Of a stretch of 31,581 nucleotides of DNA, positions 1 through 31,581 are shown piece after piece. The position numbers and the translations under genes are program-made. The notes under the pieces were generated by a model, which had not been told where the DNA came from, ran no database searches, and saw nothing but the letters and a program-made list of their open reading frames with translations. This DNA is from a virus. The stretch is from UHGV virus genome UHGV-1546770; one strand, given 5' to 3'. The first letter of the stretch is position 1, and every line of letters begins with the position of its first letter.

Positions 1-1
1 G

Positions 2-86
2 TGGGACAGGGGGTCGGATTCGAACCGACGTGAGCAAAGCTGGCGGCTTACAAAACCGCTCCAATCGACCACTATGGGACTCCTGC
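2..86 (-). tRNA. tRNA-like gene, type-II-like body (13-nt variable arm), anticodon loop UUUGUAA (UGU), encoded CCA
   Basis: Hand fold of minus strand: acceptor GCAGGAG/CCCCTGT (6 of 7 pairs), D-arm CCA-TAGTGGTCGAT-TGG, anticodon stem GCGGT/GCCGC, T-arm GTCGG-TTCGAAT-CCGAC, discriminator C plus CCA. Confidence 0.5.
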
Positions 87-164
87 AGATCTCTGTGTCT
101 TTCCACAGCGCCAGCTATGCTTTGTTTGGTGGCGGCGCGCGACGTGCATAGCATCCACATTTTT

Positions 165-235
165 CTAACGCAACTTGAATCGAACAAGTATCTCCCTCTG
201 ATAGTGAGGGCGCTTTCCCATTAAGCTATACGATA
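165..235 (-). tRNA. degenerate tRNA-like gene, anticodon loop ACUAUCA (C at position 33)
   Basis: Hand fold: acceptor TATCGTA/TGCGTTA (one T-T mismatch), D-arm GCTT-AATGGGA-AAGC, anticodon stem CCCTC/GAGGG, perfect T-arm ACTTG-TTCGATT-CAAGT; no CCA. Confidence 0.35.
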
Positions 236-292
236 ATATAATTTTAAACACTGGCAGGGCGGCGTATCCTGCATCTCAGATTCCCTATAAGA

Positions 293-350
293 GGAGCGTC
301 GGGAGCCTTTCCGACCTCAGTGTTTCATTTATGTTTCAACAACCGCTGAT
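293..350 (-). pseudogene. tRNA pseudogene fragment related to the 2-86 tRNA-like gene
   Basis: Minus strand AGCGGTTGTTGAAA...GTCGG-AAAGGCTC-CCGAC resembles the anticodon and T-arm of the 2-86 gene (same GTCGG/CCGAC stem) but the T-loop is degenerate and no acceptor pairing is found. Confidence 0.25.
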
Positions 351-481
351 GATTAGTAGCGATAAGCATTTATGCTTTGCTTAAAGCAGTTTCTGAGGAA
401 TTATATGAAAAAAATGCATCAAGTCGCTAATTTATATGCCGCCACACGACAGGTCGGCAATCTTTGTTGTTGACTTTAATT

Positions 482-572
482 TGGTCCCCCCGGAATGGAT
501 CGAACATTCATATACCTTGTGAGGGCCTCTCCGTTATAAGCAGAGGGCTATAACCAATTTAGCTACGAGGGG
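482..572 (-). tRNA. tRNA-like gene with ~19-nt variable region, anticodon loop CUUAUAA (UAU), encoded CCA
   Basis: Hand fold: acceptor CCCCTCG/CGGGGGG (7 pairs incl. one G-U), D-arm GCTA-AATTGGTTA-TAGC, anticodon stem CTCTG/CGGAG, T-arm GAATG-TTCGATC-CATTC, discriminator A plus CCA. Confidence 0.5.
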
Positions 573-760
573 AGATATTAATTTGCCGTCTTTCCGAGCT
601 GTCACCGTTTCTGCCGATTTGTAGGGTTCGTTCGAACAGTTTAAGCAACTTATCCCTTGGTAATGATAGCAAGCGAGGCCGCGTATGACCCCTAACAGAC
701 TTAAAAGTTACTGGTTCTATCTTCACTCAAATCTGACATTGTACGCTACTCACTATCATT

Positions 761-843
761 TGGTGGGCAGGGTGGGTGTCGAGCCCACTACCCCGAAGGA
801 ACGGATTTACAGTCCGCCGCGTTTGCCGATTCGCTACCTGCCC
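761..843 (-). tRNA. tRNA-Tyr (anticodon GTA), type II, encoded CCA
   Basis: Hand fold: perfect 7-bp acceptor GGGCAGG/CCTGCCC, D-arm GCG-AATCGGCAAA-CGC, anticodon loop CUGUAAA, 12-nt variable arm with CC-TTCG-GG hairpin, T-arm GTGGG-CTCGACA-CCCAC (C at position 54). Confidence 0.7.
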
Positions 844-854
844 ATATTTATTTG

Positions 855-930
855 GTTGCTGAAGCTCTGGAATTGAACCAGATTAAAACGACTTATGAGG
901 CCGCTTGAGATACCTACCTCCCACCAGCAA
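855..930 (-). tRNA. tRNA-like gene with Met/Ile2-type anticodon loop CUCAUAA (CAT); acceptor stem imperfect
   Basis: Canonical core GCGGC-CUCAUAA-GTCGT, 5-nt variable loop, T-arm TCTGG-TTCAATT-CCAGA; no clean 7-bp acceptor pairing found by hand, so possibly a pseudogene or a misfold. Confidence 0.4.
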
Positions 931-983
931 TATGTTGCAACTTTAGTATTTTATATAGGTCGTACAGTTGCCACAAAGACCTG

Positions 984-1060
984 TGGTACGCCACCTCGAA
1001 TTCGAATCGAGACTTGATGCATTTTGAGTGCATTTCCTCTGCCAATTGGGATAGTGGCGC
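984..1060 (-). tRNA. tRNA with anticodon CAA (Leu by anticodon) but type-I body with 5-nt variable loop, encoded CCA
   Basis: Hand fold: acceptor GCGCCAC/GTGGCGT (7 pairs incl. G-U), anticodon arm ATGCA-CTCAAAA-TGCAT, T-arm CTCGA-TTCGAAT-TCGAG, discriminator A plus CCA. Confidence 0.6.
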
Positions 1061-1071
1061 ATATTAAAGAA

Positions 1072-1145
1072 TGAAAACGATAAGACTTGAACCAATGTCT
1101 TCCTCGTTCGTAGCGAGGCACTCTATACAACTGAGTGACGCTTGC
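1072..1145 (-). tRNA. tRNA-Arg (anticodon ACG), partly degenerate
   Basis: Anticodon arm CCTCG-CTACGAA-CGAGG matches the canonical Arg-ACG loop; D-arm ACTC-AGTTGTATA-GAGT; T-arm ATTGG-TTCAAGT-CTTAT (one mismatch); acceptor GCAAGCG/CGTTTTC (one mismatch); no CCA. Confidence 0.5.
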
Positions 1146-1203
1146 ATATTTGACTCTTAGGTCAGTCAGCCACACATTACTTAACGCATTCCATTTGTTC
1201 GCG

Positions 1204-1290
1204 TGGTGCAGGTGAAGGGCCACGATCCCTCAATCCCATCTGGGCGACAGATTTTAAGTCTGTTCTGTATTCCAATTCCAGCACACCTGC
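1204..1290 (-). tRNA. tRNA-Leu (anticodon TAA), type II, encoded CCA
   Basis: Hand fold: perfect acceptor GCAGGTG/CACCTGC, D-arm CTG-GAATTGGAATA-CAG, anticodon arm ACAGA-CTTAAAA-TCTGT, 15-nt variable arm, T-arm GAGGG-ATCGTGG-CCCTT, discriminator A plus CCA. Confidence 0.65.
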
Positions 1291-2428: not shown

Positions 2429-2602
2429 AATTCATAATCTCCTTTTAGTGATTTTTAATTATTAACTATAATTATGTACTATCTAGCGTGTTTACATATT
2501 ACCACATTACTTGTCATATGTCAAGTCCATCTTGTGGTTTTTCTTTTTATGTATTCAAGCGGCTCAATCAATCAAGTTGGCTCTCTCTTGACTACATTCT
2601 GA

Positions 2603-2631
2603 ATTATACCACAATAATTTCGTATTGTCAA
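2603..2631 (-). promoter_or_regulatory. sigma70-type promoter, exact consensus TTGACA-N17-TATAAT
   Basis: Minus strand TTGACA atacgaaattattgtgg TATAAT; the -35 hexamer overlaps the TGA stop of the upstream gene. Confidence 0.6.
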
Positions 2632-2972
2632 GGGGTATTTTCAAGAATTTCTACTGGAGTTTCAAATACACGACTGTTTAGTGCAATCAGATCTGCTCTA
2701 AACATATCAATTCGCTTATCAAAAGCACTATAATACTTCTTCATAAGCTTTTCCTTTGCAAGCATCTTACCCTTCTCCTCGTCGTACACATCACCTTTCG
2801 CAAGCTTGACCTTGACCTTAAACTGCTTAGGCATCATGTACTTCTCACGAATCATATAACAGTCAAACTCATTGAGAAACTTATCAATCTTATTAATTGC
2901 ATCAAGCTCAGTTCCTCTTAGAACAGCGAACGTTTCCTTCGTGTTTGGGTTGCTATAATACTGAATAGCCAT
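2628..2972 (-). CDS. hypothetical protein (114 aa)
   Basis: Intact ORF in the co-directional series; preceded by tandem promoters at 3032-3060 and 3114-3142. Confidence 0.6.
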   Translation of the reverse strand: MAIQYYSNPNTKETFAVLRGTELDAINKIDKFLNEFDCYMIREKYMMPKQFKVKVKLAKGDVYDEEKGKMLAKEKLMKKYYSAFDKRIDMFRADLIALNSRVFETPVEILENTP

Positions 2973-3031
2973 TTTTTCTTTTGTCCTTTCTTTTTTAAAT
3001 AATTTTTTATTGTCTTTTGACTTATGCTTGA

Positions 3032-3060
3032 ATTATACCATATGTTTTTCTGTTTGTCAA
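3032..3060 (-). promoter_or_regulatory. sigma70-type promoter, exact consensus TTGACA-N17-TATAAT
   Basis: Minus strand TTGACA aacagaaaaacatatgg TATAAT; tandem with the 3114-3142 promoter. Confidence 0.6.
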
Positions 3061-3113
3061 TATCTTTTTTCGTTTTTTTGAATCACATATTGACTTCTTT
3101 CAACTATGCTTGG

Positions 3114-3142
3114 ATTATATCACAATAATTTCTGTTTGTCAA
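3114..3142 (-). promoter_or_regulatory. sigma70-type promoter, exact consensus with TGn extended -10
   Basis: Minus strand TTGACA aacagaaattattgtga TATAAT; -35 overlaps the TGA stop of the 3139-3669 gene. Confidence 0.6.
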
Positions 3143-12463: not shown

Positions 12464-12532
12464 TCATCATTCATCCCCCTTTCTCAACAATTGAAAAGAC
12501 TATAATTTTATATTACATCTCATTACGATTGC

Positions 12533-12561
12533 ATTATACCATAACAATTGCGTCTTGTCAA
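12533..12561 (-). promoter_or_regulatory. sigma70-type promoter, exact consensus TTGACA-N17-TATAAT
   Basis: Minus strand TTGACA agacgcaattgttatgg TATAAT. Confidence 0.6.
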
Positions 12562-12735: not shown

Positions 12736-12764
12736 ATTATACAGTACAAAATTATCATTGTCAA
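12736..12764 (-). promoter_or_regulatory. sigma70-type promoter, exact consensus TTGACA-N17-TATAAT
   Basis: Minus strand TTGACA atgataattttgtactg TATAAT, immediately downstream of the recombinase stop codon. Confidence 0.6.
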
Positions 12765-12770
12765 ATCTTA

Positions 12771-13745
12771 TTAAACCATATCATCCAAAATATTCGCGGC
12801 TTGCTGCTTTTTGTCTTTAGACATATTTGCATATCTCATAGTAGTAGCAATATTTTTATGATTAAGAACTGACGCACAAAGATAAATATCTCCAGTCTTT
12901 TCGTACAAATTAGTTGCACAAGAATGTCTCAACACATGTGGTGTAACATGCTTACTTGTCACATCCTTACTATATTTTTCTAGCATCACCCTAATGCCGT
13001 CTCTTGTAATTCTCTTTTTAAAGCTAGAAATAAACAAGGCATCTGTATTCGCCATGCTAAAATATTTGTTTCTATCCTGTAGCCACAATTCTAGCTGCTT
13101 CTTTACTCTATCGCCAAATAGAATATTACATGTTTTTCCTCTTTTTTCGATTACCTTAATAGTATTATTTTCGAAATCAATATCACCAATATCAATTTGC
13201 GTGATTGCAGATACACGCAACCCAGTAGTTAGTCCAAGCATAATAATGGCTAGATCCCTATTTTTCATCTTTTTGCTTGCAAGCTTATCAACATTTTCAA
13301 GAATCATTTGCATTTCTTTTTCTGTTAAATAAGCAACATCTGGTGTATCTTGCACTTTAGGACGTTCTGTTCTCTCCATTGGATTTTCTTTAATATAATC
13401 ATTTTCTTTAAGGAACCCAAAAAACGTATTCAATGCAGACCACTTTGTCGCACGAATACTATCACTTGTATTATAATGTCCATTGATAGTTTCTTTATTC
13501 TTCAATGCGGCAAAATATTTATTAATATCCAAAGGTGTTACCTTTTTATAAAAATCATTTGAGATTCTATTTTCATTAATAAATTCTGCAAATTCCTTCA
13601 CATATGCTACATATCTCTCAACTGTTGTATAAGATTTAGTTATACACATATAATAATAAAATTCAGAAAAAATTTTAGGAAGTCCTGTTAATTTTGCCTG
13701 CATCTTATTTGTAGCAACAATTTCCTTTTCCATTCTTCCTGTCAT
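12771..13745 (-). CDS. tyrosine recombinase / integrase (XerC/XerD-like)
   Basis: Catalytic-domain motifs TGLRVSA (Arg), HVLRHSCAT (His-x-x-Arg-His) and TMRYANM (Tyr) in the expected order. Confidence 0.85.
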   Translation of the reverse strand: MTGRMEKEIVATNKMQAKLTGLPKIFSEFYYYMCITKSYTTVERYVAYVKEFAEFINENRISNDFYKKVTPLDINKYFAALKNKETINGHYNTSDSIRATKWSALNTFFGFLKENDYIKENPMERTERPKVQDTPDVAYLTEKEMQMILENVDKLASKKMKNRDLAIIMLGLTTGLRVSAITQIDIGDIDFENNTIKVIEKRGKTCNILFGDRVKKQLELWLQDRNKYFSMANTDALFISSFKKRITRDGIRVMLEKYSKDVTSKHVTPHVLRHSCATNLYEKTGDIYLCASVLNHKNIATTMRYANMSKDKKQQAANILDDMV

Positions 13746-14509: not shown

Positions 14510-14538
14510 ATTATAACGCTATAATTTTGTTTTGTCAA
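14510..14538 (-). promoter_or_regulatory. sigma70-type promoter, exact consensus TTGACA-N17-TATAAT
   Basis: Minus strand TTGACA aaacaaaattatagcgt TATAAT; -35 overlaps the TGA stop of the methyltransferase gene. Confidence 0.6.
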
Positions 14539-25668: not shown

Positions 25669-25806
25669 TTAGATTTTTACCAGCGTGTCGGCAAGCTGGA
25701 TAGCAATACCTAAGATTGTTAAAATGAGAACAATAATCCCGTCTTTCCTGTCGTCATCTCCGAATAGCAGTACACAAGCAATGATGATAAGCAAAATAGC
25801 AATCAT
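25669..25806 (-). CDS. small single-pass membrane peptide (~45 aa; start trimmed from track ORF 25669-25893)
   Basis: Internal ATG preceded by GGAG; sequence MIAILLIIIACVLLFG...ILTILGIAIQLADTLVKI is almost entirely hydrophobic. Confidence 0.45.
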   Translation of the reverse strand: MIAILLIIIACVLLFGDDDRKDGIIVLILTILGIAIQLADTLVKI

Positions 25807-25951
25807 TTGTTTTACTCCATATACTTTTGTATTGTTTATTGTTTTTGTATTAATTTTCCATGTTATATTCGCATTTTTTGATAGTGGCTTCATTTACATT
25901 GCAAACTATACTGCTCAAAATTGAAATTATATTTTGCGTTCTATATACGCA

Positions 25952-26095
25952 TTAAATGATGCCACATGAACTTGCAATCATTGCAATAATTGCAAGGAAC
26001 AAGATGCCTCCGAGCAAGCTCCCGATACCAGATTTGGTAGCATCTTTTCCAAAAAGCAGTACACAAACAATAATGATTAGCAGAATAACAATCAT
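25952..26095 (-). CDS. small membrane peptide (~47 aa), paralog of 25669-25806; below the ORF-track cutoff
   Basis: GGAGGTAAAATCA before the ATG; MIVILLIIIVCVLLFGKDATKSG... resembles the neighbouring peptide; coordinates hand-counted. Confidence 0.4.
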   Translation of the reverse strand: MIVILLIIIVCVLLFGKDATKSGIGSLLGGILFLAIIAMIASSCGII

Positions 26096-26116
26096 TGATT
26101 TTACCTCCTTTTTTTA

Positions 26117-27067
26117 TTAATAATACTTGTATGCATCTTTGTCAACATTTACGTCAGTGATATCTCCATATGTGATATCAGAATGTGCCATCAAGAATCT
26201 ACCAATTGCCTCTTCCATTGAATATGCGTCCGTGTCGTACCACTCTGTGTTTCCGTTAGTGTTAACATACTCAATCAGATAATAGCCATAATTGTATTCT
26301 GGCTCATCACGATTATTGTCTTCAAGATATCTGTCAATGTCAAACAGAGAATCATATCGCACAGGTGCTTCCACATAATCGAATTTGTCATTCTCCGTTG
26401 TGCGCTCAAGGATTTTACATGCCTCCTTAATGCTTCTTTCCATTTCAGAAAGAATGACATATTCACTTTTTGTATGTGCTTTGTAATAACCACAAGAAAG
26501 ATTCACTGCTGCACAACCAAGAGCGGGAGCGATTTCACAGATATCAGAATAAGATCCATACGCTGTTTTATAAAATTCCTTTGTAATAAAGTCCTCGAAC
26601 TCATCATTTGCACAGGAATAAAACACTGCATCATTTGCGTTGGCACGATCAAATTCAATGATGTAATTGAACTCAAGATTTCTTGCCAGCTCAGAGTCTG
26701 CAAACTTACTTGAGCCTACGCAACCAACCTCTTCGTCCTCGCAGAACAGAACAGAGCAGTTAAACTTTTCAAGAATCTTGAAAATCATATAGACACCGCA
26801 TCTATCGTCGCCTCCGATTCCGTTAGGGCTTGAAACTTTATTGTTCTTTTTACTATACATGAACATATTAGGAAGCTTTTCATGCACAGTATCAAGATGT
26901 GCAACCAGCAGCACAGGAAATTTCCCTTGTGCATATACATACCCATCTCTGTTAAGAACTGTTCCATGAGTCTTTTGCAGCTTCTGTCTAACATGATTCT
27001 TTAGACTTGCTTGAGACATCTTGCAAATTTTTTCAAACTCTTTATTCATAATTGATTTTACCTCCAT
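26117..27067 (-). CDS. putative co-catalytic zinc metallopeptidase-like protein (316 aa)
   Basis: Ordered motifs VLLVAHLDTVHE, GIGGDDRCGV and FCEDEEVGCVGS resemble the His/Asp, Asp-Asp and Glu-Glu metal-ligand blocks of M20/M28/M42-type enzymes; assignment from motif memory only. Confidence 0.45.
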   Translation of the reverse strand: MEVKSIMNKEFEKICKMSQASLKNHVRQKLQKTHGTVLNRDGYVYAQGKFPVLLVAHLDTVHEKLPNMFMYSKKNNKVSSPNGIGGDDRCGVYMIFKILEKFNCSVLFCEDEEVGCVGSSKFADSELARNLEFNYIIEFDRANANDAVFYSCANDEFEDFITKEFYKTAYGSYSDICEIAPALGCAAVNLSCGYYKAHTKSEYVILSEMERSIKEACKILERTTENDKFDYVEAPVRYDSLFDIDRYLEDNNRDEPEYNYGYYLIEYVNTNGNTEWYDTDAYSMEEAIGRFLMAHSDITYGDITDVNVDKDAYKYY

Positions 27068-28869
27068 TAAACCGCTTCATCAATGTCTGTTTCATTCTCA
27101 AGAATTTCTCTCAGGCAATCTTCGCAGTACATCTTTCCTTTGTGTTCTCTCAAATTGTTGTTTCTAAAACATTCTCCACACTCTTCACAGCAACTATAAT
27201 AATAATCACAACAATCGTCGCACACATATTCATCCTGAGATTCAATATAGTTCATACACTCTCTTGGATAATATTCTCCACATTCCGCGCAATACTCATA
27301 ATATTCGTCTCTGCAATTTTCACAGACACAAATTTCATAGCCTCTTGAATTATGAACATATGTCCCTTCGCCAACGTAATATTCATCACAGTCATTGCAA
27401 TGGAAAACACAATCTCCACAATAAGGCTCTCCGTCAATATAGATGGCATCATCTTCATCGACATATTCGCCGCATGCAGCACATTTAACTCCGTGATGAC
27501 AGCAAGAAATATTGTCGTCGCAATCATGCTCATAACCACATTCGATGCAAATTGGTGTATGTCCAACAGTAATGCAATTCTCGTTGTCGTTTCCTTTAGG
27601 ACGGCTAAGAGTGCAATTTCCAAAGTTGTCGTAATCTCTATAATGAGTACCTTCAGACTCAATATATCTGCCTGCTTCGCTAGTTCCCTTACTCACAGTC
27701 CAGAAGTTCGGGAAATCAAAAATTTCAGACATGATTTTCTGAACAATTGCTCTGAAAGCGGTGTAGCCGGTGCTGCATCCATCATTGTCTTGCGGATAAA
27801 GTCTGCCCTGAATCAGTTTGTCTTCTCCCCAGTGATACATCTGACGGTTAATCTTTGGCTCATTCCAGAAATCGTTTCCATCATAAGATGCATCCACAGT
27901 GTAAAACACCATAGAAGGAGAATCGAGCATATAACTAATAGTACCAGAAGAATACATTCCCTGATAACTATTAGGCATGCCTCTTTTGTTTTGCTTATCA
28001 ATTGTATGACAGCTCGCCCAGCTATTGCCAAAGCTCATTGTGAGATAATCAAGAGGATTCACAGAAAGAATAGTATGCCTTGTAATCTTGAGCGGATTGA
28101 GCGCGTCAGCATACTTTGCGAATTCCCTATTGTACTCAGGATGCTTGCTAATACCAATGTAAGCAAGAAGCTTATTGATAACACGACTCGTCTTCTGCCC
28201 GTCATGTGCATGAATTTCAGGACAAATTCTGTTTAGCTCATCAGCAAGTTCGCTATCAATATACTGAGAAGTATAGGCTGGAATTCTAATCAAGAAAGCA
28301 AAGATATTTGTTGGGTATTTCTGTCCATTCAGTGAAGTTTCTTTCTTCATGCTTTCGGGCATAAAATTATTTTCTTTTACATATTCGACCACATCACCAT
28401 CAATCACCCATGACTTGAATCTCTCCAATGCATTACGATCAGTTACACGTTCAAAATCATGGCTAAATACAATCATGAATTTGCCTTCCAGATAGTTCGG
28501 ATGCTTCTTAAATGCGGCAATCAGGTCTTTCTTGTTATTCGCCCATGTGTCAATGATTTTGTTCAGTGCCCTGTCCGTATATTCATAGTCATATTCATCA
28601 AGCAAGTTTTCCATCTGGTCAAGAAGAATTTCTCTTTCTTCTTCAGTGATAATATTACTTACATCCATTTTACTTTCTCCTTCCTTTTCATCAAGCAAAT
28701 CAAAGTATTGCGCATCTACCCAATAGCCTTCGCCGTTTATGTTTTTAACAAAAATGTTGTCGTCAGTATATTTACTAATCTCTACAACACGCCCTCTCCA
28801 ACCGTTTGTTGTGATGCCATAAGGAGCACCACGCTGTGCAATTACTCTATCACCAAGTTTAAATTTCAT
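27067..28869 (-). CDS. large hypothetical protein (600 aa) with C-terminal tandem zinc-ribbon array
   Basis: Longest ORF in the window; C-terminal ~150 aa contain at least 8 CxxC pairs in repeated units (CAACGEYV, CNDCDEYY, CENCRDEYY, CAECGEYY, CEECGEC); plus-strand ORF 27352-28236 is its shadow. Confidence 0.65.
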   Translation of the reverse strand: MKFKLGDRVIAQRGAPYGITTNGWRGRVVEISKYTDDNIFVKNINGEGYWVDAQYFDLLDEKEGESKMDVSNIITEEEREILLDQMENLLDEYDYEYTDRALNKIIDTWANNKKDLIAAFKKHPNYLEGKFMIVFSHDFERVTDRNALERFKSWVIDGDVVEYVKENNFMPESMKKETSLNGQKYPTNIFAFLIRIPAYTSQYIDSELADELNRICPEIHAHDGQKTSRVINKLLAYIGISKHPEYNREFAKYADALNPLKITRHTILSVNPLDYLTMSFGNSWASCHTIDKQNKRGMPNSYQGMYSSGTISYMLDSPSMVFYTVDASYDGNDFWNEPKINRQMYHWGEDKLIQGRLYPQDNDGCSTGYTAFRAIVQKIMSEIFDFPNFWTVSKGTSEAGRYIESEGTHYRDYDNFGNCTLSRPKGNDNENCITVGHTPICIECGYEHDCDDNISCCHHGVKCAACGEYVDEDDAIYIDGEPYCGDCVFHCNDCDEYYVGEGTYVHNSRGYEICVCENCRDEYYEYCAECGEYYPRECMNYIESQDEYVCDDCCDYYYSCCEECGECFRNNNLREHKGKMYCEDCLREILENETDIDEAV

Positions 28870-30240: not shown

Positions 30241-30489
30241 TTATAATACCTCCATTTCCCTTAATACCGCTTTTGCGGCAGTAGTGATGTGGTCATCGTG
30301 ACAGTTGTATTTATCAAACCAGTCACAAACAGTTTCGATTGGGATAGTTGCACGAATGCAGTCCCATGCAAGTCTTGTGCCGAAGTCTTTGTAGTTGCCA
30401 GTTGCCTTGAGCTTTTCAGCATACTCAGGCAAGTTAGTGATCTTGCTGAAGCTTTCCCTTATGAAAGGGATTTCGTTTTTGAGTTTCAT
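30241..30489 (-). CDS. hypothetical protein (82 aa)
   Basis: AAGGAGGG RBS; immediately downstream of palindromic repeat copy 1. Confidence 0.5.
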   Translation of the reverse strand: MKLKNEIPFIRESFSKITNLPEYAEKLKATGNYKDFGTRLAWDCIRATIPIETVCDWFDKYNCHDDHITTAAKAVLREMEVL

Positions 30490-30496
30490 TTATTTC

Positions 30497-30575
30497 CCTC
30501 CTTTGTCATTTTGGCAAAGCCCTTAATGATACCCACGATAGATTCTAATCGTGGGCATGATAAAGGTTTCGCTTA
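30497..30575. repeat. palindrome-containing repeat element, copy 1
   Basis: gcaaagccc-taat-at ACCCACGAT n8 ATCGTGGGCAT ...aggtttcg; shares conserved flanks and an 8-9 bp inverted repeat with copy 2. Confidence 0.5.
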
Positions 30576-31125: not shown

Positions 31126-31149
31126 TATGTGAAACTCCTTTCTCTTGAT

Positions 31150-31230
31150 GTGTGCAAAGCCCATAATAATACCCACGAGTTTTCGCTCGTGGGCATTGGT
31201 TATAGGTTTCGATTACCGGAACATCCCAAT
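31150..31230. repeat. palindrome-containing repeat element, copy 2
   Basis: gcaaagcccataataat ACCCACGAG n6 CTCGTGGGCAT ...aggtttcg; followed on the minus strand by TATTAT and an RBS. Confidence 0.5.
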
Positions 31231-31581
31231 TCCGTACTTTTCAGTCAGTCCCGCTTTTCGCTGTAGCTTGCCCTTTACGCTCAACTGACACGGTTTTCAA
31301 TGGACTTTCGTCCCCACTTGCTATGACTAGAACCATCTTATGGGCAATAATCTTAATCAAAAAACACTCGCAAGTGCTCACTTCTAGCATTTTGCCCATA
31401 AAGCGAATATGTTTGTTGCACATATTCAAGCCCTAAGAGTCTAAGCCACTCTCACTCTTTGCTCTGTTGATATTCTTCCACCGTCAACAGTCGGAGACTC
31501 GGACTAATGCGGCAACTTGGTTCAGTGTGTTCACACCTATCCACTCACGCCACGTGGAGGCGTTGCCATGTGAGCGCGGGG

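Follow-up and report, generated by a model that had tools for sequence, protein, structure and literature searches.

What occupies the non-coding right end (positions 31230-31581) of UHGV virus genome UHGV-1546770, a 31,581-nucleotide stretch of virus DNA referred to here as the window? A preliminary description, made by eye, had noted inverted repeats and a GC-rich tip and had left a structured RNA, a replication or packaging site and a genome junction as options. Because the minus strand carries every gene of the window, in a dense one-directional set of open reading frames (ORFs), the right end was also read on the minus strand, which the description had not done. In this direction, the region begins with a predicted hepatitis delta virus (HDV)-like self-cleaving ribozyme (module A), continues with a conserved RNA element (element B) that encloses a terminator-like hairpin, and ends with a truncated third element (element C) and the remnant of a lost gene. 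We consider it about 75% probable that the region as a whole is a transcribed non-coding spacer of a long minus-strand operon, composed of the ribozyme, element B, the nested terminator and debris. The ribozyme is of a kind already known, and element B is an unclassified motif. Related phage sequences are designated by L numbers, and the features are listed in Table 1.

The composition of the region was as first described, with a GC content of 0.61 in the distal segment (31510-31581), 0.44 in 31230-31509, and 0.36 in the whole window. The complementary segments GGCAAC (31511-31516) and GTTGCC (31562-31567), already noticed by eye, form the P2 helix of the ribozyme fold. The lack of a convincing ORF was also borne out, the sole ORF being a 62-aa frame with a TTG start (31241-31429, minus strand) that crosses stretches non-coding in the relatives and a deletion junction. 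Folding was better than in shuffled sequences on both strands, with z = -4.5 on the minus and -3.7 on the plus strand. Rfam searches at the gathering score (window and six relatives) and at E ≤ 10 (the region; L012 5950-6800) gave nothing in the region reaching threshold, and when the region was compared by blastn with 50,697 phage records, none matched.

Because of a weak Rfam match in L012 (drz-agam-1, 13.9 bits, E = 9.2), the HDV fold was tested by hand. The minus strand from 31575 to 31510 (66 nt) can be parsed as GCUCAC, A, UGGCAAC, GCC, U CC ACGU, GGC, GUGAGU, GG, AUA-GGUGU-GAAC-ACACU-GAA, CCAA and GUUGCCG, corresponding in this order to P1-5', J1/2, P2-5', P3-5', L3, P3-3', P1-3', P1.1, P4, J4/2 and P2-3' of the nested double pseudoknot. 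HDV-type ribozymes cleave at their own 5' end, and a G-U wobble at the start of P1, as found here, is seen in HDV and CPEB3. Strict and relaxed descriptor scans returned this single site in the whole window. The strict descriptor gave no match in 200 shuffles and none when the presumed catalytic C was changed to A, G, or U. Folding without pseudoknots recovered P2, P3, and P4. On these and the following comparative grounds, we regard an HDV-like self-cleaving ribozyme at this position as very likely.

Comparative support came from a scan of IMG/VR for the P3/L3 core alone (GCCTCCACGTGGC-N6-GG). A perfectly complementary 6-bp P1 was present at the proper distance in 60 of the 99 distinct core matches with enough flanking sequence, compared with 2-4 of 99 at decoy offsets, and P2 was also present in 66 of 114 core matches. 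Of 51 unique sequences, 44 had C[ACU][AG]A as the four bases preceding the 3' strand of P2, which was not a requirement of the search. An alignment of 27 sequences contained compensatory changes in five of the six P1 pairs and all seven P2 pairs, with the G1-U wobble in every ribozyme (27/27).

The fold might still be an inactive relic or a chance match, and the stretch nothing but decaying deletion debris. Two small genes have indeed been lost in the window and element C is truncated; moreover, the ribozyme is not recognized by Rfam and its P1 has 6 bp instead of the classical 7. However, module A is 96-100% identical across the relatives, whereas the neighboring genes are only 73-93% identical to the reference. 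Changes among close relatives are limited to the free second position of J4/2 (CCAA, CUAA, CAAA), one junction base, and a G-U to A-U exchange that keeps P4 paired. A chance match sits badly with the absence of descriptor matches in shuffles, and a 6-bp P1 is found among the published phage ribozymes of active type tabulated in the source cited below. Modules A and B have also outlasted three independent deletion events, in the window, L002 and L011. A relic or a chance match is improbable.

Element B, for which there is no Rfam family, holds both inverted repeats of the preliminary description. The perfect 10-bp repeat is present as described (TTATGGGCAA, 31338-31347; TTGCCCATAA, 31392-31401; 44 nt between the arms), and a 10-bp arm at that spacing did not occur in any of 300 mononucleotide shuffles of the 71-nt segment. 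The hairpin within reach of it also exists, but with 8 bp rather than 7 (GAATATGT/ACATATTC, 31405-31412/31420-31427); it is designated H3. Two structures had gone unmentioned: a 7-bp hairpin (31464-31470/31484-31490), designated H1, and the terminator-like hairpin inside the 10-bp repeat.

The core pattern of element B was matched by 36 stretches in IMG/VR and 33 metagenome stretches, i.e. ~70 phage contigs from gut samples. No match was obtained in 185,579 bacterial and archaeal species genomes, which left no prophage or host clue. A search with an anchor from the 5' half returned all 36 IMG/VR loci and one unrelated coding match, and the core was invariant in all 36. Because the 5'-half anchor alone gave the same loci, the 3' half of the core is invariant independently of the search. 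The core contains GACUCUUAGG in the window and GGCUCUUAGG in most relatives. A covariance model of the core and H3 (R1) scored 78.2 bits in the window, where it found a single copy, and detected 1-2 copies per relative, always on the gene strand. With these copy numbers, the idea of a repeated intergenic cassette was discarded.

The hairpins of element B vary around this fixed core. A variable hairpin always adjoins its 5' side, H1 in the window being replaced in relatives by CUAUGAA/UUCAUAG, GCACGG/CUGUGC, or GCAUG/CAUGC. Within the core, a further hairpin (H2) may form. In H3, five of eight pairs were changed on both sides in a MAFFT alignment, with 99% of cells paired, and seven of seven in a model-fitted alignment of 35 distinct sequences, with 97% paired. 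The loop of H3 stays AGAAYAA or GCAAYAA while the stem varies.

On the 3' side, the 10-bp repeat forms an outer stem around the terminator-like hairpin. The same layout was found with five other pairs of arms (UGCAUGGAU/AUCCAUGCA, GUAUUGGAC/GUCCAAUAC, GCCCAC/GUGGGC, GUGCCCACA/UGUGGGCAC, and UGCCCACA/UGUGGGCA), and all six versions pair across 36-65 nt enclosing a hairpin and then a U-run. Because six unrelated arm sequences keep the same place and layout, the 10-bp repeat is taken to behave as an RNA helix. Only the gene strand accommodates the G-U pairs of the inner hairpin and the place of its U-tract. As perfectly palindromic arms lying in a regulatory spacer, the 10-bp and 8-bp repeats could also be operators for dimeric DNA-binding proteins, the more so as some substitutions are uncompensated on the sense RNA. 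However, the arms are wholly different between close relatives with nearly identical flanks, and such a protein would have had to change its specificity repeatedly. The 44-nt spacing is unlike an operator, and the conserved loop on a varying stem in H3 is the signature of an RNA hairpin. Operators are therefore a very improbable explanation of the repeats.

Of the options first listed, the structured RNA is thus the one upheld: the GC-rich tip folds as an HDV-like ribozyme, and the inverted repeats lie in a conserved RNA element with compensatory changes. The description had held that a missing Rfam hit, together with a lack of thermodynamic or covariation support, would speak against structure. 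The Rfam check indeed came out negative for the region, and we judge this to be overridden by the covariation and the descriptor match. Element B is best described as a covariation-supported RNA motif without an Rfam family, with a putative terminator enclosed by a long-range stem. It would merit a family description, and a terminator inside a long-range stem is an unusual design.

An invariant core and covarying hairpins followed by a terminator are also the usual look of a riboswitch or small RNA, so that element B and the terminator could constitute a small-RNA gene or a ligand-sensing (riboswitch-like) attenuator. In relatives of the L025 type, the core lies directly before a ribosome-binding site (RBS) without a terminator, and riboswitch classes likewise switch between transcriptional and translational platforms. 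However, no anti-terminator pairing between core and terminator was found by eye and no promoter was seen before element B. With 1-2 copies, the element is confined to a single phage lineage, with no occurrence among the 185,579 bacterial species genomes, and the neighboring genes hint at no ligand. We consider this alternative unlikely.

Separately, a hairpin with the conserved loop UAG[GA]CUACCUUGACG[UC]GG, not present in the window, was observed downstream of element B in L017-L021, L030, and L038-L041. The AUAGAC/AUAGGC of the same loop can pair with GUCUAU/GCCUAU near the next RBS, with a compensatory change between copies. This pairing may represent a translational control structure.

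Several observations weigh against the interpretation of the region as a transcribed spacer with ribozyme, element B and terminator. The Rfam HDV-family models, which are built from animal and HDV sequences, did not match in the window at the gathering score or at E ≤ 10, and the drz-agam-1 match in L012 is the best HDV-family score in a relative. The 27-sequence ribozyme alignment was picked by a descriptor that demands pairing, which makes its 100% pairing partly circular and leaves the decoy comparison as the independent test. In element B, H2 showed no covariation in the model-fitted alignment of 35 distinct sequences. The inner hairpin of the window, with 7 bp and just two G-C pairs, was not called by a terminator scan; those of the other sequence versions are stronger, with up to 12 bp and U7-8. 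Several single, uncompensated substitutions leave A-C mismatches on the sense strand where the antisense strand would have G-U; these affect the outer stem of L004 and L012, H3 of L005, and the gene-end hairpin described below. No sigma-70-like promoter was seen in the region on the minus (gene) strand. Finally, the genes next to element B have no assigned function, which makes its role a guess.

For the genomic context, the reverse complement of 31130-31581 was aligned to the relatives. They begin with a 232-aa gene and the hairpin GGGGACgcgauaaaGUCCCC, after which come module A (83 nt), a 56-aa gene that is optional and has an end hairpin of its own, and module B (~170 nt), followed by module C (124 nt, in some relatives only), an optional 153-aa Cys-rich gene, the gene-end hairpin, and a 50-aa gene. 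In the window, A, B, and the truncated C abut directly and both optional genes are missing. The 153-aa gene was lost through different deletions in L002 and L011, and fragments of the 56-aa gene persist in L005 and L009. These differing deletions make the spacer a hot spot at which small accessory genes are lost, with A and B being retained.

The window stops within the hairpin GGGGACgcgauaaaGUCCCC, which is completed in the relatives by the sequence ...UAGUCAGGGGACGCGAUAAAGU on the 5' side of the window end; the sequence 5' of the predicted cleavage site ends ...GUCCCCGC. This hairpin has a predicted energy of -12.7 kcal/mol, lies 25 nt past the stop codon of the 232-aa gene in the relatives, and was recovered in the fold of L004. 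In L002, which is the 37.7-58.0 kb portion of a 151-kb contig, the point matching the end of the window is internal. Because the region is internal in the contigs of the relatives, the right end of the window is best interpreted as an assembly break inside the hairpin and not as a phage terminus.

These data also bear on the possibility that the region is the end of the genome, a site of packaging (pac/cos) or an origin of replication, with repeats that act in DNA. The window does end here, in a non-coding region rich in inverted repeats, and the unique, invariant core of element B with its 1-2 copies per genome is what a protein recognition site on DNA would look like. However, the equivalent sequence is internal in many contigs of 105-168 kb, amid ordinary genes, with optional genes inserted between the modules. 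No iterons or AT-rich unwinding element were found. The stems change and yet pair, including by G-U, and the hairpin with its U-tract speaks for an RNA of the gene strand. The ribozyme accounts for the GC-rich tip. We consider the probability of a terminus or origin to be minimal, and the junction, replication, and packaging options of the preliminary description were abandoned. Its advice to look at the flanks, where the start of an ordinary gene might appear, was followed through the relatives: ordinary genes do flank the region, but the spacer is non-coding. A circular arrangement, in which the right end would be continuous with the tRNA array of the left end and a large RNA of the ROOL or GOLLD type would be concealed there, was rejected, as ordinary genes lie upstream in the relatives.

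Element C is complete in some relatives, where it has 124 nt and is closed by CAUAGCAAGG/CCUUGCUAUG (stem of at least 10 bp). A C-core scan detected it in the seven closest IMG/VR relatives only. No Rfam match was found, and an exact 24-mer had no match in IMG/VR owing to a substitution in the window. The RNAalifold consensus contained no compensatory pair; the one compensatory change, from GUCAGU/ACUGAC to GUUAGU/ACUAAC, is in a helix not chosen by RNAalifold. It is possible that element C is a lineage-specific structured RNA. In the window, the truncated copy and the last codons of the lost gene would be deletion debris. Full-length copies were observed at L012 6596-6746 and in L013-L016 and L022, with a GGGGA...UCCCC hairpin (GGGGAuuuauccaaaaaGUCCCC) before the element, like the hairpin before the ribozyme.

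Table 1. Features of the right end of the window, listed in the direction of the minus strand
Feature	Position	Strand	Remarks
Hairpin 3' arm, last four bases CCCC	31578..31581	minus	Hairpin GGGGACgcgauaaaGUCCCC; comparison with L002, L004, L005, L008, L009
HDV-like ribozyme (predicted)	31510..31575	minus	Predicted cleavage between 31576 and 31575; descriptor and covariation
P1	GCUCAC 31575-31570 / GUGAGU 31548-31543	minus	G1-U wobble: G31575-U31543
P2	UGGCAAC 31568-31562 / GUUGCCG 31516-31510	minus	
P3 and L3	GCC 31561-31559 / GGC 31551-31549; L3 UCCACGU 31558-31552	minus	
P1.1	CC 31557-31556 / GG 31542-31541	minus	Directly after P1
P4	GGUGU-GAAC-ACACU 31537-31524	minus	5 bp; 20 nt between P1.1 and J4/2
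J4/2	CCAA 31520-31517	minus	Presumed catalytic C at 31520
Element B overall	31490-31338	minus	Holds both inverted repeats; no Rfam family
H1, CUGUUGA-13 nt-UCAACAG	31464..31490	minus	Directly 5' of core
Core and H3	31397..31465	minus	Invariant 34-nt AGCAAAGAGUGAGAGUGGCUUAGACUCUUAGGGCUU; covariance model R1
H2 (possible)	31459-31454 / 31440-31435	minus	Within core AGCAAAGAGUGAGAGUGGCUUAGACUCUUAGGGCUU
H3, GAAUAUGU-GCAACAA-ACAUAUUC	31427-31420 / 31412-31405	minus	8-bp hairpin
Outer stem, UUAUGGGCAA / UUGCCCAUAA	31401-31392 / 31347-31338	minus	10-bp repeat
Terminator-like hairpin, GAGCACU-ugcg-AGUGUUU (within GAGCACUugcgAGUGUUUUUUGAUU)	31379-31362; U-tract 31364-31359	minus	Inside outer stem
Element C, 5' two-thirds	31241..31326	minus	3' third deleted with 153-aa gene; junction at shared AAGU
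Remnant of 153-aa gene, last 8 codons and stop (..KYGIGMFR*)	31213..31240	minus	Comparison with relatives
Gene-end hairpin, CCCACGAG-cgaaaa-CUCGUGGG, then UAUUAUUAUGGGCUUUG, then RBS	31168..31197	minus	Same non-coding stretch, outside the finding
First downstream gene, 50 aa	30973..31125	minus	RBS AAAGGAG at 31141-31135; called as 50-aa gene in relatives

A possible role of the ribozyme is suggested by what precedes it. The predicted cut site lies 2 nt past the hairpin GGGGACgcgauaaaGUCCCC that closes the upstream gene in the relatives. Of 41 distinct ribozymes, 13 were preceded by a perfect hairpin (6 bp or more) whose end lay 0-4 nt from the cut site, and of 1065 decoy positions, 32 were so preceded (odds ratio 15, p = 1e-9). 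This strict test replaced a laxer one, which 43% of the decoy positions passed. Among related IMG/VR ribozymes, the arrangement is thus ~10 times commoner than at control positions (13/41 compared with 3%). The stop codon of a sense ORF was found within 100 nt upstream of the ribozyme at 25 of 60 loci. In the literature searched, no paper was found that describes a device for mRNA ends in which an HDV-like ribozyme comes after a hairpin.

The ribozyme would cut the transcript at its own 5' end, at G31575. This would give the upstream mRNA a protected 3' end, consisting of a hairpin and a 2',3'-cyclic phosphate, and would leave the downstream RNA with a compactly folded beginning and a 5'-OH. 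Exonucleases should find it difficult to enter at either new end, and the neighboring messages would be uncoupled and both stabilized. We offer as a speculation, with the odds against it, that phages in general use hairpin-ribozyme modules to produce mRNA ends that are defined and protected while transcription continues and that, jointly, element B is a new class of cis-acting RNA, perhaps governing terminator read-through (nut- or put-like) in large phages of Gram-positive gut hosts. If true, the many HDV-like ribozymes that are "isolated" (non-tRNA) would have a function as mRNA-end devices. The hairpin-ribozyme pairing provides a testable idea for orphan phage ribozymes, namely 3'-end formation and the uncoupling of messages.

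Other HDV-like ribozymes in IMG/VR have different upstream sequences. A second group (L048, L049, L058, L061, L070, L081, and others) has the conserved string ...GUAGCAACGAAGCCCGU or AAUAACGAAGCYC upstream and no hairpin, which suggests another conserved RNA whose 3' end the ribozyme defines. In L131, the ribozyme directly follows a tRNA-like 3' end, i.e. the theta type. As to the window, no HDV-like ribozyme was found by the relaxed descriptor after any of its seven tRNA genes.

The window is part of a large (~150 kb) uncultured phage from gut metagenomes. The 82-aa product of 30241-30489 was looked up as an exact protein, and its gene proved to be present on contigs of 105-156 kb, some of them from pig and human gut and some from other assemblies; further IMG/VR contigs of 87-168 kb were recovered by the pattern scans. 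The products encoded in the window include a DnaB-like helicase, a Sak4-like annealing protein, a GIY-YIG endonuclease, an SSB-like protein, a tyrosine recombinase, a DUF932 protein, and a tail-fiber protein. The ribosome-binding sites are strong Shine-Dalgarno sequences, and the helicase has its nearest cultured relatives in Geobacillus virus E3 (31% identity) and, with a weaker match, in Bacillus phages of the SPbeta-like group; because of both, a Gram-positive gut host (Firmicute) is probable. The minus-strand operon would be a long one of small, probably early genes. Pfam and PHROGs assign no function to the small proteins next to the region.

Several further observations concern the remainder of the window and the relatives. 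At the left end (1-1290, minus strand) are seven tRNA genes (Thr, Ile-like tat, Tyr-like ata, Tyr, Met, Leu, Leu), with a skipping-rope RNA among them at 246-325 (77.9 bits); the left end itself is 1 nt past a tRNA-Thr. A gene-end module of ~80 nt occurs in two paralogous copies with 75% identity (31135-31215 and 30498-30575, minus strand), each with a hairpin (CCCACGAG..CUCGUGGG or CCCACGAU..AUCGUGGG), then UAUYAUUAWGGGCUUUGC, and then the RBS. It may be a terminator, a stabilizer, or a processing site. In several relatives, the gene-end hairpin has an A-C mismatch on the sense strand that corresponds to G-U on the antisense strand. The word TTATGGGC was rejected as a recurring promoter or operator, since its 22 matches compared with 19.7 expected showed no enrichment. 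Near-perfect sigma-70-type promoters (TTGACA-17-TATAAT) form a small family with a shared 45-nt context at 2587-3142, 12517-12561, 12736-12764, and 14510-14538, minus strand.

The tyrosine recombinase (phage integrase family; 12771-13745, minus strand) may not serve lysogeny, because the element B pattern of this lineage was unmatched in the bacterial and archaeal species genomes. A 600-aa protein (27067-28869, minus strand) has a long C-terminal run of CxxC motifs and no Pfam or PHROG match, and its length is kept in all relatives. The adjacent 74-aa and 47-aa genes, which encode hydrophobic, membrane-like products, share a 62-nt stretch with 82% identity (25754-25815 and 26043-26104), which points to a local duplication. 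In relatives, a gene-free gap of 1.1-1.7 kb was observed between divergent gene blocks ~0.7-5 kb upstream of the ribozyme (L004 5690-7358; L001 2820-3910). This candidate control or origin region had no Rfam match at the gathering score.

That HDV-like ribozymes are common in gut phages has been established before, and Webb and Riccitelli are said to have worked on such ribozymes earlier. To our knowledge, a role has so far been proposed only for the tRNA-adjacent copies. Theta ribozymes are those whose cleavage site lies within ~5 nt of the 3' end of a phage tRNA, and their minimal form has no P4 (short L4). Unlike these, module A adjoins no tRNA (ARAGORN; six relatives with upstream sequence) and has the 232-aa ORF and the hairpin upstream. 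The theta-ribozyme paper of 2024 (Kienbeck et al., PMC10879173) explicitly leaves the role of the non-tRNA ribozymes open. The gut-phage ribozymes listed in its supplementary tables include members with a 6-bp P1 starting with a G-U wobble and members with a GCC/GGC P3 and small P4-like inserts; the exact sequence of the window ribozyme was not found in the portion of those tables that was searched. With the drz and theta ribozymes of gut phages listed there (PMC10879173), module A shares the nested double pseudoknot with the helix order P1, P2, P3, P1.1, P4, the identical L3 (U-CC-ACGU), the GG right after P1, and a CNAA J4/2 with the catalytic C first. Also common to those listed is the setting, which is non-coding DNA of a Caudoviricetes-type phage of the gut, with the ribozyme in the same sense as the genes. 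Unlike the minimal and theta forms, a short P4 is kept, with 20 nt between P1.1 and J4/2 compared with 6-7 nt in the theta examples listed, and P3 is GCC/GGC instead of the ACC/GGU of those examples. The window ribozyme is also missed by the Rfam HDV-family models. Because of the lack of an upstream tRNA in six relatives, the short P4, and the differing P3, module A is classed as an HDV-like ribozyme that is not theta in the strict sense.

The proposed effect of module A resembles that of RiboJ, a synthetic insulator in which a ribozyme between expression units strips the upstream RNA context and leaves a structured 5' end; the same outcome would be expected here. RiboJ is, however, an engineered ribozyme of the hammerhead type, whereas module A is natural, HDV-like, and paired with an upstream 3' hairpin.

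For element B, two comparisons were made. The nut sites of lambda (boxA and boxB) and the put RNA of HK022 are cis-acting signals of processive antitermination. In lambda, boxA is CGCUCUUA-like, and boxB is a hairpin with a GNRA-like pentaloop that is bound by the N protein. In the manner of nut or put, element B (31490-31397) would be a recognition signal controlling read-through of the weak nested terminator (31401-31338). Its invariant motif, present in 36 loci, reads GCUCUUA in most family members and ACUCUUA in the window, identical or nearly identical to the core of lambda boxA; this 7-mer was noticed after the fact and, unlike in lambda, can pair into H2. As in nut, a hairpin follows a few nucleotides later, its stem variable and its purine-rich loop conserved, and then a putative terminator in a long one-directional operon of small genes. 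Unlike boxB, the loop has 7 nt (AGAAYAA/GCAAYAA) and is not a GNRA-like pentaloop, and no N-like protein was identified among the neighboring proteins by Pfam and PHROGs. A signal for antitermination or RNA processing is favored for element B, with antitermination put forward as a tentative proposal. Alternatively, the nested stem, which could form only in read-through transcripts, would be a cleavage site for a double-strand RNase, and element B a pure processing signal, which appears somewhat less probable. T7 and the Bacillus phage SP82 have RNase III processing hairpins between their early genes. Like those sites, the structure separates cistrons of an early operon and is an irregular double strand of about two turns (10 bp outside and 7 bp inside, with internal loops), and cutting would be predicted to leave hairpin-protected ends. 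Unlike the T7 sites, it encloses a terminator with a U-tract.

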